Positions 19,270 to 53,191 of a DNA stretch of 64,000 bases are shown here, piece after piece. The stretch is from assembly GCA_963817955.1 (NCBI GenBank), contig CAWFQK010000004.1, positions 1,248,001 to 1,312,000 of the forward strand, in the 5' to 3' direction. Source of the DNA: an uncultured Gemmatimonadaceae bacterium (lineage in GTDB: Bacteria; Gemmatimonadota; Gemmatimonadetes; Gemmatimonadales; Gemmatimonadaceae). Position 1 is the stretch's first letter. The number at the start of each line of letters is the position of its first letter. Below the pieces are notes generated by a model. It made no database searches and was not told the origin of the DNA. It saw only the letters and a program-made list of their open reading frames with translations. The position numbers were made by a program, and so were the translations under genes.

Positions 19270-19920
19270 TCACTGAAGCGCCGTCCTCGGGTTGACCGAT
19301 TTCGCACGCCGCGCCGGAACGTACGCTGCAATCCCGGCCACGATCACCATGAACGGCGCCGCACCGCCGAGTACTGCGGGATCCGCTGGACGCACCCGAA
19401 AGAGCAGTGAGGTCATGAGCCTCAATGCCGCGACGACACCGCCGATGCCGATGACGATGCCCAGCAAAGTGACGCGCACGCCTTGGCCCAGCACCATACG
19501 CCTGATCTGGCCAGACTCCGCGTCCAACGCCATGCGCATCCCGAATTCGCGCGCGCGCAGCGTCACACCGTACGACAATACGCCAAACAATCCGAGGGCG
19601 GCGAGACCGAGCGCGACAGACGCGAAGCTCGTGAGCAACCGCAACACGAACACGCGCTGCGCGGAGCCGCGGCCGATCACGTCGGTGAGCGGCGCCGGTC
19701 GATAGATGACGAGCTCCGGATCGATGTGCCCGATCGGGGATCGCACGGCGGATTCAATCGACGCCGGTGGAACCGACGTCGCGACGACCTGCGTGAGTGC
19801 CCAGTTTCGGTCGCCGGCGAACTGCACGTGCCAGTGATAGCCATACAGATCCGGTGTGCCTTCGGGGTCGAGCGCCACGCCGCTCACCACCCCAATGATC
19901 TCCAGCGTGCGCCCCGCCGT
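19270..19920 (-). pseudogene. C-terminal fragment of an ADOP/FtsX-like ABC permease
   Basis: GLFGVLSYGVTLRAREFGMRMALDA and YVPARRAKSVNPRTALQ; N-terminal part absent. Confidence 0.8.
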
Positions 19921-38539: not shown

Positions 38540-40204
38540 ATGCAGAGCCCGACAACGTACGACTTCGTCATCGTTGGCTCCGGCTTCGGCGGGAGCGTGT
38601 GTGCCATGCGGTTGTCCGAACGCGGCTATAGAGTGCTCGTCCTGGAGCGCGGCAAGCGGTTTCGCGATGAGGATTTTGCGCGCTCCACCTGGAACGTGCG
38701 CCGCTACTTGTGGGCGCCGTTGCTCCGGTGCTTCGGCATTCTGCAGATCAGTCCCTTCAAGGACGTGTGGGTGCTTCACGGATCGGGCGTAGGGGGCGGG
38801 AGCCTTGGGTATGCCAATGTGCTCATGCAACCGAGCGACGAGCTGTTCGCCGCGCCCGCCTGGCGCCATCTCGCGGACTGGAAGACGCTCCTCACGCCAC
38901 ACTTCGACACCGCGCGACGCATGCTCGGTGTGGCGCCCAATCCCAAGCTCTGGCCGGCGGACGACGTCTTGCGCGAGATCGCGGGCGAGCTCGGCACGAG
39001 CAACACATTCGCGCCAACGACGGTGGGTACCTTTTTCGGCGAGCCGGGCCGCGAAGGCGAGCTCGTGGCTGATCCGTACTTTGGCGGCGCGGGTCCCGAG
39101 CGGCGCGGCTGCATCCATTGCGGCGCCTGCATGGTGGGCTGTCGCGAGAACGCCAAGAACACGCTTCCAAAGAACTACTTGTACTTTGCCCAGGCGCATG
39201 GTGCCGAGATTCGCGCGGAGTGCGAGGTGCGAGACATCGTGCCGCTCGGCGAAGACCGGGACGGCGCACGGTACGCGGTACGCTTCCGCCGCTCGACGGC
39301 ACTCTTTGCGACGAAGGAGCAGAGCGTCCACGCGCGCAACGTCATCGTCGCGGCCGGCGCGCTCGGGAGCGTGGGGCTGCTCTTCCGCTGCCGCGACGTC
39401 ACCCGCTCGCTCCCCCTCATCTCGCGGCGTCTGGGCGACTCAGTGCGCACGAACAGCGAGGCTATCCTGGGGAGCGTGTGCCGCGACAGAACGGTGGACT
39501 ACTCGAAGGGTATCGCGATCACGTCGGTGATGAGCGCGGACGCCGAGACCACGATCGAGCCGGTGCGCTATCCGGCGGGATCGTCGATGATGCGCTTTCT
39601 TGGCGGACCAATGGTGGAGGGGAACACGCTGCTCACGCGTCTGCTGAAATCCGCCGCGCATCTGGTGCGCCATCCCATGGATTTCTTGCGCACGCACGTG
39701 GCGCCTGGATGGGCCGAGCGCAGTACCGTGCTGCTGGTGATGCAGACAATCGACAATCGCATAAAGCTGCGCCTGGGGCGCAGCGCACTGACCGGATTCC
39801 GACGCGGGCTTGTGAGCGAGCGAGATGAGATGAGCGCCGCGCGCGGATCCACGGCGGTGGGCAAAGACGTGGGCGAGCGGTTTGCCAACCGCACGAACGG
39901 CATACTCACGGGATCGATCAACGAAGGGTTGTTCGGCACGCCACTCACGGCGCACATCCTGGGTGGCTGTCCGTTCGGGCGCGACGCTGAGGAAGGTGTG
40001 GTCGACCTCAACTGTCAGGTTCACGGACATCAGGGAATTTTCGTGGTGGATGGCTCGATTGTGCCGGCGAATCCCGGCGTGAATCCGAGTCTCACGATCA
40101 CCGCGCTTGCCGAGTATGCAGCAACGCGCATTGCATCCACGAGCGAACCGCCGATCCCGCACCGGTCAGCGGCCAATTCCCTACAGACGACGGCCGGCAC
40201 GTGA
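38540..40204 (+). CDS. GMC oxidoreductase, ChoD/cholesterol-oxidase-like
   Basis: GSGFGG, GVGGGSLGYAN, CIHCGACMVGC..NAKNTL.KNYL, TAHILGGC, GVNPSLTI. Confidence 0.88.
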   Translation: MQSPTTYDFVIVGSGFGGSVCAMRLSERGYRVLVLERGKRFRDEDFARSTWNVRRYLWAPLLRCFGILQISPFKDVWVLHGSGVGGGSLGYANVLMQPSDELFAAPAWRHLADWKTLLTPHFDTARRMLGVAPNPKLWPADDVLREIAGELGTSNTFAPTTVGTFFGEPGREGELVADPYFGGAGPERRGCIHCGACMVGCRENAKNTLPKNYLYFAQAHGAEIRAECEVRDIVPLGEDRDGARYAVRFRRSTALFATKEQSVHARNVIVAAGALGSVGLLFRCRDVTRSLPLISRRLGDSVRTNSEAILGSVCRDRTVDYSKGIAITSVMSADAETTIEPVRYPAGSSMMRFLGGPMVEGNTLLTRLLKSAAHLVRHPMDFLRTHVAPGWAERSTVLLVMQTIDNRIKLRLGRSALTGFRRGLVSERDEMSAARGSTAVGKDVGERFANRTNGILTGSINEGLFGTPLTAHILGGCPFGRDAEEGVVDLNCQVHGHQGIFVVDGSIVPANPGVNPSLTITALAEYAATRIASTSEPPIPHRSAANSLQTTAGT

Positions 40205-43123: not shown

Positions 43124-44791
43124 CTATCCTCCCCGACGAAATGCCAATATCAACGCAGTGACAAAGAGCGTTGCCCAGATGGGCCACGCCACACCGAATG
43201 CCATGAGAATGGCGCCGGCAACCAGACAGAAGCCGGCGAGCAGAGTACCGCGGACGCCGGACAACGGGTTTTCCTGGGGAGTCCGCGTATTTCGCTCGAG
43301 CACGCGAACGCCTTCGGTGACGAGGGACGGCAGCTTCACCAGCGCATCGAGGAGGTCCGGCGCGCCGCGCAACTCGTCGCGCGCAATGCGCAGTGGATTG
43401 AACTGCTCCAGGAACACCGAACGGACGTGGCGGCGCGACACGGTGGCCACGTCGAACCCGGGGAGCAGCACATGCCCCACGCCTTCATAGGTGATGAGGG
43501 CCTTCACCATCAGCACCAACTCGACCGGGAAGTACATGCGGTACTGACCGCCCTGGGCAACCGATTCCAGCACCAACTGCGCGAGCGAGAAACTCTCGAA
43601 CGTGGACGCGCGGTGCCAGCGCGACGAGATCTCGGCCACATCGCGCCGGAATCCGACCGGGTCGCCGCCCGGTCCAGGGTGCGCGACGGCAGCGAGATAT
43701 CGCGCCGCGTTCTCCGAATCGCCCGTGACGAGTGAGTAGAAGTAGTAGAGCAGCGCACGCCGCAGGTCCGGATCCATTCGTCCGACCATCCCCAGATCGA
43801 TGAATCCAATCTTGGCGTGTGGTAGAATGAGCAGATTTCCCGGATGCAGATCGGCGTGGAAGAATCCGTCGCGATACAGCATGCGGATGATTGCCAGCGC
43901 GCCGAGGTCGACGAGGTGCTCGCGTACCGACTCTTCGATTGCCAGCGCGCCCGGCGCATCGGGGCGCACCCCGTCGAGGTACTGCATCGTGAGCACCCGA
44001 CGTCCACTGAGATTGCGTTGGATGGTCGGGAACACGATGTCGGGCTGGTCGGAGAAGTTCGCCGCGAACGTCTCGGCGTTGTCGGCCTCGCGCCGCAGGT
44101 CGATCTCGCGCAGCGTATAGTCGCAGAACTCGGCAATGATCCGCTGCGGCTGGTAGCGCGACAGTACGAGCTGGAGTGTGGCGCCAAGAACGCGCAGAAG
44201 CTTCGCGTCGCGCTCGAGCGTTTCTGCCACACCCGGCTTTACCGCCTTGATGACGACGTCGTCGCCAAAGAGCGTACGTGCGCGATGGATCTGCGCAATC
44301 GATGCCGATGCGAGCGGCGCAGGATCGATCGACTCGTACATTCGATCGACGGAGCGGCCGAGGTCGCGCTCGACCAGCACGCGGAACTCGGCGAACGTCA
44401 CTGCCGGCAACTCGTTGAGTAAGTGCCTGAGCTCCGAGGTTACCGATGCGGGGAGAATGTCCTCGCGTAGGCTGAGAATCTGGCCGAGCTTGATGTAGGT
44501 GGTTCCCATCAACTCGAGTCGACGGCGAAACTGCACGGCAAACTCGAGGTCCACGAGGTCCTTTCGCACGAATGGCCGCGCAACCACGGCGGCCATTCGT
44601 ACGAGCAGCCGAGCAGGCGGCCGGCTGTCGCCCGGACGGCGCCGCGCGTGCGCGACGAGCGCGCCCAGTGCCAGGCCCGCCAGGTGTCGATTGACCACAA
44701 AGGCACGGCGCACGATGCCCGGCGGCGAGCGGACGACCAATCGCTCGAAGCTACGTGGCAGTTCCGCCGACGCGTGGGCCATCGTGGTCAT
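43124..44791 (-). CDS. ABC1/UbiB (AarF) family atypical kinase
   Basis: YIKLGQILS.REDILP, ASASIAQIHRA, FHADLHPGN, IDLGMVG; C-terminal TMs. Confidence 0.92.
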   Translation of the reverse strand: MTTMAHASAELPRSFERLVVRSPPGIVRRAFVVNRHLAGLALGALVAHARRRPGDSRPPARLLVRMAAVVARPFVRKDLVDLEFAVQFRRRLELMGTTYIKLGQILSLREDILPASVTSELRHLLNELPAVTFAEFRVLVERDLGRSVDRMYESIDPAPLASASIAQIHRARTLFGDDVVIKAVKPGVAETLERDAKLLRVLGATLQLVLSRYQPQRIIAEFCDYTLREIDLRREADNAETFAANFSDQPDIVFPTIQRNLSGRRVLTMQYLDGVRPDAPGALAIEESVREHLVDLGALAIIRMLYRDGFFHADLHPGNLLILPHAKIGFIDLGMVGRMDPDLRRALLYYFYSLVTGDSENAARYLAAVAHPGPGGDPVGFRRDVAEISSRWHRASTFESFSLAQLVLESVAQGGQYRMYFPVELVLMVKALITYEGVGHVLLPGFDVATVSRRHVRSVFLEQFNPLRIARDELRGAPDLLDALVKLPSLVTEGVRVLERNTRTPQENPLSGVRGTLLAGFCLVAGAILMAFGVAWPIWATLFVTALILAFRRGG

Positions 44792-45972
44792 CGATTGCGT
44801 CCGAGCCGCTCATGCGCCGAGACCCATTCCAGCGTGGAGATCGCAGCGGCGAGAGACAACTCGCCGGCGAGTACCGTGGCGGCAACGATCTCGGCGAGCT
44901 TGTTGACGCTTCCGGGGCCATCGCAACCGATCATGCCCAGACACTCGCGTTGCGTGGGCAGATGCGTACCGCCACCGTGCGTCGCCACGATCAACGAGGG
45001 TATGGTGATGGAGAAATACAGATCACCGGCCGGGGTCAGCTCCACATAGGTGGTCGCGGCCACACTCTCGGCGACATTCGCCACGTCCTGGCCGAGCGCA
45101 ATGAACATCGCGGTGATGGCGTTCGCCGAATGCAGCCCGTTGTTGTTCGTGCCCGAGAGGAGCGCGGCGACGTTCGCCACGCCCCAGTGATACGCGAGTT
45201 GCTCCGGCTCCACGCGGAGCCGCTCGCGCAGCAGGGCGCGCGGGATCGTCACCTCGGCTGTCACCCGCTTGCCTCGCGGGTGCAGGATGTTGACAGCCGA
45301 AGGTTTCTTGTCGGTGGCAAAATTCGACTCGAGGAACGAGCGGCGGACCTTGGCATTATTCGCCAGGATCCATTTGTAGGCGGCGTACGTCGCCTTGCCG
45401 ACCATGTTCTGTCCAGCGGCATCGCCCGTGGTGAAGTTGAAGCGAATGAACGCGAATTTGCTGGCCAGGAATGACTCGATGCGCACCAGTCTGGCCACGT
45501 GCGACGTTGCTTCGGCCTGCACGCGGATCTCATTCATGTGCTCGGCAATCCAGTCGACGAAGTCGCGCGCATCGCGGGCATTGTCGAACACGAACACGGG
45601 CGCGCGCTGCATGGCATCGCTGGAAATGGTCGTCATCACGCCGCCGGCGAGGGACGCGACCTTCATACCTCGGCTGTACGACGCCACCAGCGTGCCCTCG
45701 GTGGTCGCCAGCGGAATCAGAAAGTCGCCGTGTGCGTGCTCGCCATTCACTGTGAGCGGCCCGGCAACGCCGAGTGGAATCTGGGCGGCGCCGAGCAGGT
45801 TCTCGATATTGCAGACCGTCTCTTCCGCGGGGATGGCGGACTGCGAGACATAGTTCAGCTTGGTGCCCGTTTGCTCCTCGCAGAACGTGCACCGTTGCGC
45901 CGCGAGCGCCGGAGAATGGTCCGTCGCCACGTTCCGGTTGTGGGGGATATGCGTTGTCATTACAGATGTCAC
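44788..45972 (-). CDS. Class I HMG-CoA reductase-like protein
   Basis: NIENLLG, PLATTEGTLVAS, GDAAGQNM, GQDVA, GGGT, GELSL. Confidence 0.88.
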   Translation of the reverse strand: MTSVMTTHIPHNRNVATDHSPALAAQRCTFCEEQTGTKLNYVSQSAIPAEETVCNIENLLGAAQIPLGVAGPLTVNGEHAHGDFLIPLATTEGTLVASYSRGMKVASLAGGVMTTISSDAMQRAPVFVFDNARDARDFVDWIAEHMNEIRVQAEATSHVARLVRIESFLASKFAFIRFNFTTGDAAGQNMVGKATYAAYKWILANNAKVRRSFLESNFATDKKPSAVNILHPRGKRVTAEVTIPRALLRERLRVEPEQLAYHWGVANVAALLSGTNNNGLHSANAITAMFIALGQDVANVAESVAATTYVELTPAGDLYFSITIPSLIVATHGGGTHLPTQRECLGMIGCDGPGSVNKLAEIVAATVLAGELSLAAAISTLEWVSAHERLGRNR

Positions 45973-46661: not shown

Positions 46662-46709
46662 GTGTCATCCTGAGGGAGCGAGATCCTTCGCATTCGCTCA
46701 GGATGACAC
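46662..46709. repeat. Palindromic REP-like element GTGTCATCCTGAG...CTCAGGATGACAC
   Basis: 13-bp inverted repeat; related half-copies at 51782-51832. Confidence 0.8.
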
Positions 46710-46716
46710 GGCAGTT

Positions 46717-47202
46717 TCAATGCCGTAGGGCCATGACCGCTTCCTCGACATCGGCGGCGTGATTCTGTGGTTTCACCTTCTCGAAAACCGTCGCGATCCG
46801 ACCTCTGGGATCAATGACGAATGTCGTCCGGTTCACACCCCAATACCGTTTGCCGAGCATACTCTTTTCCGTCCACACACCGTACCGGTCGGCAATGGCA
46901 TGATCGGTGTCGGCGATCAGCCTGTACGGAAGCTGATATTTCGCTTTGAACTTGCGGTGCGACTCTACCGAGTCGGGACTCACACCGAGCACGACAGCAT
47001 CGAGTCCCTCGAACCGAGGGAGGGCGTCTCGAAACGAGCACGCCTCGATGGTTCAGCCGAAGGTGTTGTCCTTGGGATAGAAGAACAACACCACGACGCG
47101 GCCCTTGAAGTCCGAGAGCGACACGCGCTTGCCCTGGTCGTCGAGCGCCGTGAAATCGGGGGCCTTCACCCCCGTAGTCACCTGACTGATTGCATTGCCC
47201 AT
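46717..47202 (-). CDS. bcp: BCP/PrxQ peroxiredoxin with an in-frame UGA at the peroxidatic Cys (probable selenoprotein)
   Basis: [12 protein letters not shown](47053-47055)-TIEACSFRD continues in frame to GVSPD...RTTFVID; 162 codons including the final stop. Confidence 0.88.
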
Positions 47203-47324
47203 GAATCCATCCTGGCGTTGGCCGCAAGGTGGTTGTGGTCCTGTTCTGATGGACACACAGTGAACGGAGCAATTCGGTTGCATCTTGAGTGCCGTTTCCG
47301 TTCACCCGCTGGCGTGCGGAAGGC

Positions 47325-51776: not shown

Positions 51777-53191
51777 GCGGGGAGATCCTTCGCTTCGCTC
51801 AGGATGACAGGCTGGGGTTCGCTCAGGATGACGGGCTGGATATGGTGCTCGTCACGCCATGCGTGCAGGTCCGCCAGCGCGCGTGCGGCAAGCTGTTCGC
51901 GCTTGAGACGCTTGTCCTTCACACGGACCGGGAGATCGTCGACCAGGCCGAAGTTCGCGTTCATGGGTTGAAAATGCGCCGGATCCGCTTCGCGCACATA
52001 TCGGTACAACGCACCAAGCATGGTCGTGGTCGGCGGTACGACGGCCGTCTCGCCCCGCAGCAAGCGTGAGAGATTGATGCCGGCCATCAACCCGGTGGCC
52101 GTGCTCTCGGTATAACCCTCGACGCCGGTGAGCTGGCCCGCGAACAGCGTTAGCGGATCGTCGCGCAACGCCAAATGGGGCGACAACGACGCAGGCGAAT
52201 TCACGTACGAGTTCCGATGGATGGATCCGTAGCGCAGAAATTCAGCGTTCTCCAATCCAGGAATCATGCGGAACACGCGCGCCTGCTCGGGAATGCGCAG
52301 ACGGGTCTGGAATCCGACAATGTTCCACATCCGGCCGCCGCGGTCTTCCATGCGGAGTTGTACGATGGCGTACGCGTCGCGACCGGTGCGCGGATCGCGC
52401 AGCCCCACCGGCTTCATGGGACCGAACCGCAGCGTCTCCCGTCCGCGCTTCGCCATTTCCTCAGCCGGCATACACCCGTCGAAGTATGGCGCCTGGTCGA
52501 ACTCGTGGCCGTGGTGCTGGTCGGCTTCGATCAGCGCATCGAGGAACGCCTCGTATTGCTCGCGCGTGAATGGGCAGTTGAGGTACGCTCCTTCCTGAGC
52601 CTCATCACCGTCGGCGCCACCTGACATGGTCTCCTTGCCATACCGTGAGGCACGGAAGACGATGTCGTGATCGATGGAGTCGCGGGCGACGATCGGCGCG
52701 ATCGCATCATAAAAAGCCAGCGACGACACACCGAGGCGCTGACGAATGGCGTCGGCGAGCACATCCGATGTCAGTGGTCCGGTGGCAACGATGCCCGGGC
52801 TTGGCAGCGCAACAGCTTCCTCGCGCACCACGGCGATCCGCGGATGCGTCGTCACACGATCATTGACCGCGGCGGAGAACACATCGCGGTCTACCGTCAG
52901 TGCACTGCCGCCCGGCACGCGAGCCTCATCGGCCGCCCAGAGCACCACCGATCCCAACAGCCGCATCTCGGCTTTCAAGAGGCCGTGCGCATTTGAGGTC
53001 TCGGTGCTCTTGAACGTGTTCGAGCAGACCAGCTCGGCAAGCCGCTCCGTCTTGTGAGCAGGCGTTCCCCGTACGCCGCGCATCTCGTGAAGCACGACGT
53101 CGTGTGCGCGCTCAGCAAGCTGCCACGCAGCCTCGCTGCCAGCGAGGCCGCCACCGACGATATGCACTGGATTGGTAGAAGAGTTGGTCAC
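51773..53191 (-). CDS. trmFO: tRNA (uracil-5)-methyltransferase TrmFO
   Basis: GGGLAGSEAAWQ, ELVCSN, FGPMKPVGL, AGQLTGVEGY, FQPMNANFG. Confidence 0.95.
   Translation of the reverse strand: MTNSSTNPVHIVGGGLAGSEAAWQLAERAHDVVLHEMRGVRGTPAHKTERLAELVCSNTFKSTETSNAHGLLKAEMRLLGSVVLWAADEARVPGGSALTVDRDVFSAAVNDRVTTHPRIAVVREEAVALPSPGIVATGPLTSDVLADAIRQRLGVSSLAFYDAIAPIVARDSIDHDIVFRASRYGKETMSGGADGDEAQEGAYLNCPFTREQYEAFLDALIEADQHHGHEFDQAPYFDGCMPAEEMAKRGRETLRFGPMKPVGLRDPRTGRDAYAIVQLRMEDRGGRMWNIVGFQTRLRIPEQARVFRMIPGLENAEFLRYGSIHRNSYVNSPASLSPHLALRDDPLTLFAGQLTGVEGYTESTATGLMAGINLSRLLRGETAVVPPTTTMLGALYRYVREADPAHFQPMNANFGLVDDLPVRVKDKRLKREQLAARALADLHAWRDEHHIQPVILSEPQPVILSEAKDLPA
51782..51832. repeat. Two half-copies of the palindromic element inside the trmFO 3' end
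   Basis: gagatccttcgcttcgctcaggatgac...ttcgctcaggatgac; encodes QPVILSEPQPVILSEAKDL. Confidence 0.8.

Follow-up and report, generated by a model that had tools for sequence, protein, structure and literature searches.

The stretch analyzed here (hereafter the window) comprises 64,000 nt from an uncultured Gemmatimonadaceae bacterium (GenBank assembly GCA_963817955.1, contig CAWFQK010000004.1, positions 1,248,001 to 1,312,000). It carries on its minus strand a bcp/prxQ peroxiredoxin gene, hereafter bcp, in which a TGA codon interrupts the reading frame at the position of the peroxidatic cysteine; this TGA is proposed to be read as selenocysteine (Sec, U) with the help of a hairpin in the downstream mRNA. 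With the TGA read as U, the gene (47202..46717) encodes 161 residues, from the start ATG at 47202..47200, which is backed by the N-termini of full-length Cys homologues (MGNAKKGV...), to the true stop TGA at 46719..46717. Translation with table 11 splits it into a 76-aa open reading frame (ORF; 47283..47053), which ends in the internal TGA, and a 91-aa ORF (46992..46717). The coding features are listed with the evidence in brackets.

46717..47202, minus strand: complete bcp/prxQ gene, 161 codons plus stop, with one in-frame UGA (sequence, translation, family profiles)
47053..47055, minus strand: in-frame UGA at residue 50, the peroxidatic position of PxxxTxxC, proposed Sec codon (translation; codon of the relatives)
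47038..47040, minus strand: UGC encoding the resolving Cys55, five residues past U50 (translation; motif U/C-T-x-E-A-C)

The read-through product was scored against family profiles with C substituted for U. It matched the NCBIfam profile NF006960 (thioredoxin-dependent thiol peroxidase; 153.2 bits, cut-off 140) and the Pfam domain AhpC-TSA (PF00578; 1e-42, 145.4 bits, cut-off 26). Among solved structures, 5enu_A matched best (E 5.9e-37), and several of the matching chains bear the name "bacterioferritin comigratory protein". The motif reads P43-x3-T47-x2-U50 within PKDNTFG-U-TIEAC, with Cys55 at U+5, and the conserved Arg, R125 of RTTF, lines up with that of 5enu_A. The atypical 2-Cys subgroup of peroxiredoxins has its resolving Cys at +5 relative to the peroxidatic residue. 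Opposite U50, the Cys of PKDxTxGC stands in 63 of 80 related loci and in 17/17 full-length homologues retrieved from databases; the full-length Cys homologues reach 75–77% identity to the bcp product. A preliminary description of this DNA had placed the TGA in frame at the Cys of the peroxiredoxin (Prx) PxxxTxxC motif, with the resolving Cys kept and the gene split between two ORFs, and all these coding details were correct.

The TGA is conserved in relatives and followed by coding sequence

One representative genome per species was scanned for relatives of the locus, and the best 80 of 491 relatives were kept. The codon aligned to U50 was TGA in 17 of the 80 loci (L001, L002, L003, L005, L006, L008, L009, L013, L016, L017, L018, L019, L020, L022, L025, L028 and L043) and TGC or TGT in 63, which is the TGA/TGC mix that the preliminary description had suggested looking for among aligned orthologues. 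The 17 TGA loci represent 16 metagenome-assembled genomes (MAGs), because L018 and L025 share one MAG, and all these MAGs are titled Gemmatimonadaceae, Gemmatimonadales, or Gemmatimonadota. The shared MAG, JALYKM01, holds its two TGA-containing bcp genes on separate contigs, L018 in an argF context and L025 between rhomboid-like and Rce1-like genes; the two could be a paralogue pair or a strain mix within the bin.

The frame remained open for 109–116 codons beyond the TGA in 17/17 TGA genes, and the U/C-T-x-E-A-C motif with the resolving Cys was retained in all of them. Identity to the window was 0.70 at codon positions 1 and 2 versus 0.51 at position 3 over 36 codons before the TGA, and 0.74 versus 0.47 over 95 codons after it. 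The stronger conservation of positions 1 and 2 downstream indicates that the sequence past the apparent stop evolves as coding sequence. The gene order hslV-hslU-argF-bcp-PNPOx-like was found in the window and, partly or wholly, at 7 of the 16 TGA loci scanned (L005, L017, L018, L020, L022, L028 and L043).

A protein database of 5.8 billion clusters was searched with residues 1–49 as the query. Eighteen short proteins of 43–61 aa were found, one of them being the window's own product, and 18/18 stop exactly at the Gly before the peroxidatic position, at ...(D/N)TxG. The annotation of bcp and of at least 17 related database entries thus calls for correction, as they are stored as 43–61-aa stubs and not as a full-length redox enzyme.

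A nonsense mutation that made bcp a pseudogene, or an assembly or sequencing error at the TGA, would agree with the splitting of the gene by table 11 and with its storage in public predictions as a 49-aa fragment. Such an origin is hard to reconcile with an identical TGA at 17 of 80 independent loci in 16 MAGs, with the 109–116 stop-free codons that follow and the coding-type divergence by codon position on both sides, with a gene order common to 7 of 16 TGA loci scanned, or with the co-varying hairpin that accompanies the TGA (described below). The comparative sequence data effectively refute this explanation, which appears extremely improbable. The pattern by which a selenoprotein gene is recognized, namely a conserved UGA at the redox Cys of homologues with coding constraint on both sides, was found at bcp. 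The preliminary description had favored recoding of the UGA, probably to Sec, over a nonsense mutation, and this is strongly supported by the conserved TGA, the open frames, and the TGA-linked hairpin.

TGA remains an ordinary stop codon elsewhere in the window

TGA is the commonest stop in the window, where it ends 38 of 63 greedily chosen ORFs. It also terminates bcp itself and 9 of the 17 orthologues, and, under table 11, the NCBIfam matches of the neighboring genes run up to the TGA or other stop of each gene. Since TGA works as an ordinary stop in the window and in bcp, the recoding is local. A genome-wide reading of UGA as a sense codon (tables 4 or 25) would account for the open frame and for nothing beyond it; it is already refuted by the stop codon usage of the window ORFs, of bcp, and of its orthologues, and the profile matches of the neighboring genes, which stop at table 11 stops, likewise argue against it. 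Its probability is negligible.

The window was scanned for a TGA with a G-first hairpin and an open frame on both sides, and only bcp and one non-coding match (27034) were detected. The same pattern scan over the 80 loci returned the 17 BCP genes and 7 out-of-frame shadows or implausible peptides. A list of read-through candidates in the window, filtered by GC content at third codon positions, kept 12 of 278 and lost bcp itself; it was discarded as uninformative.

A hairpin downstream of the UGA is specific to TGA genes

A minimum-energy fold was calculated for the 74 nt of the window beginning 3 nt upstream of the UGA. The fold has a Y shape, in which an outer stem encloses two hairpins. The elements are listed below; SECIS denotes the selenocysteine insertion sequence, and bSECIS its bacterial form.

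47023..47044, minus strand: hairpin 1, GGCGU-G-CUCG[UUU]CGAG-ACGCC, between the UGA and hairpin 2 (minimum-energy fold)
47005..47021, minus strand: hairpin 2, proposed SECIS core, UCCCUCG[GUU]CGAGGGA, 7-bp stem (folding, alignment, RNAalifold)
46998..47050, minus strand: outer stem, CAUCGA (47050..47045) with UCGAUG (47003..46998), closing both hairpins (fold; alignment)

The RNA alignment covered 72 nt from the TGA in the window and 16 TGA loci, and L009 was examined separately. At the seven pairs of hairpin 2, 100% of cells were paired in the 17 aligned sequences, and CGGUUCG, which includes the GGUUC apex, was invariant. L009 has the same hairpin, which brings the TGA genes with full pairing of hairpin 2 to 18 of 18 (window plus 17). 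The second perfect hairpin claimed in the preliminary description is therefore present as written. Two-sided changes were observed at three of the seven pairs, namely 35-51 (U-A to A-U), 36-50 (C-G in 7 sequences, U-A in 10), and 39-47 (U-A in 7 sequences, C-G in 10). Controls in which the pairing partners were slid by 1–3 columns gave 39–47% pairing, compared with 80% for the whole structure, and the helix was independently recovered by RNAalifold. The two versions of the stem match the peptides PRFEG and PRFGE, and the pairing is kept by protein changes that go in step with synonymous changes. The energy of hairpin 2 was −10.7 kcal/mol in the window and ranged from −7.7 to −10.7 kcal/mol over the 17 aligned TGA genes (mean −10.5).

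Genes encoding Cys at the peroxidatic position were used as controls; 61 loci were scored, as two of the 63 (L065 and L074) were not caught by the motif. All seven pairs of hairpin 2 were present in 0/61 Cys loci and six pairs in 3, with a mean of 2.6 pairs; the hairpin 2 region was at or below −7.5 kcal/mol in 0/61, with a mean of −1.2 kcal/mol. The Cys genes L026 and L030 (Trueperaceae) encode the identical peptide and form only 5 of the 7 hairpin 2 pairs; the Arg codon within the hairpin is CGG in every TGA gene, and CGC or CGT in these two. The Cys genes L007 and L011 form 2/7 and 4/7 pairs, respectively.

In a 2026 review (PMC13188914), the bSECIS model is given as a 3–9-nt loop on an upper stem of 4–16 bp, with a G in the first two loop positions, a loop pattern N1-G-[G/U]-N-N2, a spacing of 16–37 nt from the UGA to the loop, and a minimum free energy of −7.5 kcal/mol or lower. 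Hairpin 2 agrees with the loop, stem, G-first, and energy values (GUU loop, 7 bp, −10.7 kcal/mol), and its G-G-U-U-C apex matches the loop pattern exactly. The distance from the UGA to the GUU loop (47014..47012) is 38 nt; it becomes 37 nt when G41-C45 is taken as the N1-N2 pair that closes the loop in the bSECIS pattern. Because hairpin 2, unlike hairpin 1, is invariant and TGA-specific, it is proposed as the element that SelB would recognize.

Hairpin 1 varies between species

A hairpin of 8–10 bp was present at the hairpin 1 site in 17/17 sequences, with a register that shifts between species. Its loop lies 17–18 nt from the UGA and fails the G-first rule in 15/17 minimum-energy folds; a G falls within the first two loop positions in 2/17, and the remaining loops are UUU, UUCC, UUUC, or AUUC. 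The mean energy was −10.7 kcal/mol, as compared with −5.2 kcal/mol in 22 GC-matched Cys loci, 5 of which reach −6.5 kcal/mol or lower, the level of the weakest Sec gene. A hairpin 1-like fold occurs in Cys genes, as much of its complementarity is dictated by the conserved peptide EAC-x-FRDA. Hairpin 1 is probably a spacer or stabilizing helix.

The preliminary description had drawn hairpin 1 with a G-first apical loop 17 nt after the UGA and had treated this loop as the key element. The hairpin itself is present, and the minimum-energy fold draws its pairing and loop slightly differently, with a UUU loop. The importance given to the G-first loop did not hold, as the register shifts, an early G is confined to 2/17 loops, and the fold is partly shared by Cys forms. 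It follows the same lines that a functional SECIS formed by hairpin 1 (47044..47023, loop about 17 nt past the UGA), with hairpin 2 as an accessory, is unlikely. Its location would fit the geometry of E. coli fdhF, in which a GGUC loop lies 18 nt past the UGA; the 8–10-bp hairpin of the 17/17 sequences exceeds the stability seen in GC-matched Cys genes, and opening of the closing G-C pair in the window yields the G-first loop GUUUC. These points are set against the shifting register and scarcity of an early G, against the 5/22 GC-matched Cys genes that equal the weakest Sec gene in folding energy, and against the position of hairpin 2 as the invariant, TGA-specific element.

The outer stem was found only in the clade of the window (clade A, defined below), and 61.8% of its cells were paired overall. 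At its pair 7-57, 8 sequences have A-U and 4 have G-C, and no pair is formed in the other 5. The switch of this pair in clade A combines a change from Ile AUC to Val GUC with a change from Asp GAU to GAC.

TGA and Cys forms of the gene in the tree

A quick maximum-likelihood analysis of 78 core sequences (138 columns, peroxidatic column masked; L009, L065 and L074 left out) gave a tree in which the TGA genes fall into two groups. Clade A comprises the window, L001, L002, L003, L005, L006 and L020, and clade B comprises 10 TGA genes with the Cys genes L007 and L011 nested within. Both clades have kept the TGA and the hairpin over protein identities of 55–81%. The minimum number of Sec/Cys state changes on the tree is three, and the starred branches are compatible with a single origin; support is modest with 138 columns, which leaves any number and direction of the switches tentative.

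L007 and L011 keep a hairpin 1-like fold (−8.9 and −7.3 kcal/mol, respectively) despite losing hairpin 2. These two genes look like Sec-to-Cys reversions followed by decay of the SECIS, on branches of modest support. Closely related forms of the enzyme, with Sec or with Cys, share a gene neighborhood, and the hairpin decays where Cys returns; this constitutes a natural experiment, and such Sec/Cys pairs of bcp help to define SECIS requirements beyond the E. coli paradigm.

Selenocysteine as the probable residue inserted at UGA50

Taken together, the bcp product is very likely (rough probability 0.87) an atypical 2-Cys BCP/PrxQ peroxiredoxin with selenocysteine as the peroxidatic residue, and Sec would probably be the residue inserted at UGA50.

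Several observations weigh against this interpretation. The hairpin 2 loop, at 37–38 nt from the UGA, is at or just past the 16–37-nt range of the bSECIS model. The Rfam search yielded no SECIS match (0 matches of any family in the whole window at the gathering threshold), and a permissive scan of 46850..47150 returned only chance-level chrB-a (E 0.36) and mir-3204 (E 4.4), with no SECIS family. The compensatory changes in hairpin 2 amount to few independent events (two clades plus L020). The window fold alone was not significant (z = −1.89, 8/200 shuffles as good). No tRNA gene was detected by ARAGORN in the 64-kb window or in 22 related loci. SelA, SelB and SelD were not found among the 58 window ORFs by NCBIfam profiles, a search confined to the window. 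In the flanks of 16 TGA loci (all but L009), 76 ORFs were scanned with Pfam, and neither a sel gene nor any other selenoprotein family was revealed. Finally, Gemmatimonas aurantiaca T-27, the sole Gemmatimonadetes genome of a 2016 survey, is entered there as having neither SelD nor the Sec trait (PMC5029168).

The significance of the single fold was put in perspective by the E. coli fdhF SECIS region (L081 4891–4950), which gave z = +0.09 with 104/200 shuffles as good. Since a genuine SECIS scores at this level, the shuffle z-score is no test for bacterial SECIS candidates and was rejected as such; it is the comparison with relatives, and not a single fold, that indicates a hairpin not due to chance. 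With a loop at 37–38 nt, elements of this kind may be missed by a strict bSECIS scan that applies the 16–37-nt rule.

The UGA could instead be recoded through the same kind of hairpin to Cys or another residue, with a UCA-anticodon tRNA(Cys) and a SelB-like factor delivering the residue and no selenium involved. The data show recoding and not which residue is inserted, and Cys is functional at the peroxidatic site, since close Cys-encoding homologues (up to 77% identity) exist. The score of G. aurantiaca T-27 would also agree with such recoding, and a selC*-tRNA(Cys)/SelB*/CysRS* system has been described; in the accessible text of that report, it is limited to Syntrophobacterales and Desulfobacterales (PMC7609411). 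For Cys insertion, a TGC codon would suffice and spare the cell the recoding, but the TGA and its hairpin persist in two clades. Moreover, selC*, selB* and cysS* were not seen within the window, to which the search was confined. Recoding of this type is decidedly improbable. It is similarly improbable, by a hair less so, that the lineage is without the canonical selenium pathway, as recorded for the one Gemmatimonadetes genome of the 2016 survey, and that the UGA with its GGUUC hairpin is read by an undescribed or SelB*-like system to insert Cys or another residue. It is far more likely that Gemmatimonadaceae carry an unreported Sec-decoding trait with a lineage-specific two-hairpin SECIS at the limit of the bSECIS model, and that this two-hairpin SECIS has been gained and lost together with the Sec/Cys switches. 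The analysis suggests that UGA recoding, most likely a Sec trait, is common in uncultured Gemmatimonadaceae, a family of aerobic soil bacteria.

In the proposed mechanism, the ribosome at UGA50 would meet the variable spacer hairpin and then, 37–38 nt on, the conserved 7-bp hairpin with the GGUUC apex, and Sec would be inserted in place of termination; the TGA 111 codons further on, without such a structure, would lead to normal termination. The Sec50 selenolate is predicted to attack the peroxide and to form a selenenic acid; condensation of this acid with Cys55 would yield a selenenylsulfide, to be reduced by thioredoxin. By analogy with the family, from which this chemistry is taken, the bcp product is most likely a thioredoxin-dependent peroxide reductase with a selenolate nucleophile.

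Neighboring features of the window

One further structured element lies next to bcp.

46662..46709, minus strand: strong inverted repeat with a 13-bp stem, just past the bcp stop (fold; dispersed-repeat matches)

The inverted repeat has an energy of −29.5 kcal/mol (z = −5.58, 0/200 shuffles as good) and is not followed by a T-run; it may be a terminator or an mRNA-stabilizing element. The dispersed-repeat motif GTCATCCTGAGSGAA has 4 matches in the window versus 0.2 expected and is presumably widespread in soil-bacterial genomes. Two inverted copies of the short dispersed repeat GTCATCCTGAGCGAA(GCGAAGGATC) build the hairpin directly past the bcp stop, and two tandem direct copies (51794–51832) lie at the 3′ terminus of the trmFO ORF and contribute ...PVILSEPQPVILSEAKDLPA* to its translation.

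Two genes near bcp gave matches below the profile cut-offs. The minus-strand gene at 44788–45972 resembles NADPH-type HMG-CoA reductase (TIGR00533; 328.6 bits, cut-off 441.8), and the plus-strand gene at 38540–40204 encodes a GMC oxidoreductase like the cholesterol oxidase ChoxAB (NF058674; 553 bits, cut-off 850). Their joint presence hints at isoprenoid or sterol-related metabolism. The minus-strand ORF at 19270–19890 matches only the last 184 of 803 positions of the profile of ADOP-family duplicated permeases (TIGR03434) and may be a gene fragment, or its upstream part may be frameshifted.

Comparison with known selenoproteins and SECIS elements

The proposed SECIS of bcp resembles that of E. 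coli fdhF in being a stem-loop within the coding sequence 3′ of the UGA and in its G-G-U apex (GGUC in fdhF, G-GUU-C here). The fdhF loop lies 18 nt from the UGA in a single extended helix, whereas the conserved loop of bcp is 37–38 nt away behind a separate spacer hairpin, where SelB is presumed to bind.

The statement of the preliminary description that Sec-containing Prx-like proteins are known is borne out by an established bacterial family (COG1225, TxxU). PrxU of Eubacterium acidaminophilum reportedly is an experimentally verified Sec-peroxiredoxin (Sohling et al., 2001). A Sargasso Sea survey lists "Peroxiredoxin (Prx)" of COG1225 with a TXXU motif and 43 genes (PMC1088965), a 2006 analysis reports Sec-Prx mostly from anaerobes, with 12 genes and 5 conversions of Cys to Sec (PMC1794560), and a 2016 survey records Sec-Prx in 78 organisms (PMC5029168); the 2026 review counts Prx (PF00578, TxxU) among the verified families and cites PrxU of E. 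acidaminophilum (PMC13188914). The bcp product shares with the Sec-Prx family (COG1225/PF00578) the PF00578 domain, T-x-x-U within PxxxTxxU, the alignment of the proposed Sec with the residue that is the peroxidatic Cys in widespread homologues, and a stem-loop that follows the UGA immediately on its 3′ side. The hosts listed in the accessible part of the 2006 analysis are mostly anaerobes (Deltaproteobacteria, Clostridia, Symbiobacterium; PMC1794560), as opposed to Gemmatimonadota here. A full-text literature search turned up no mention of Sec being used by Gemmatimonadota within the text it covered, and a report elsewhere is possible. The kind of protein is thus already known, and the new element may be the host lineage, Gemmatimonadota.

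The bcp product is predicted to resemble PrxU (NF040737), likewise a peroxiredoxin, in its dependence on thioredoxin and in having a peroxidatic Sec. It belongs to another Prx subfamily and was ruled out as PrxU, with 72 bits against the NF040737 cut-off of 270 and 161 residues against the 233 positions of that profile. The closest resemblance is to Cys-type BCP/PrxQ proteins (NF006960; 5enu, 3gkk/3gkn, 5iiz), with which it shares the length, the fold family, PKDxTxG-C/U-T, the Arg in RTTF and, in close homologues, the Cys at +5; it would differ from them in having Sec for the peroxidatic Cys and, at the mRNA level, in a hairpin pair that is missing from the Cys genes.

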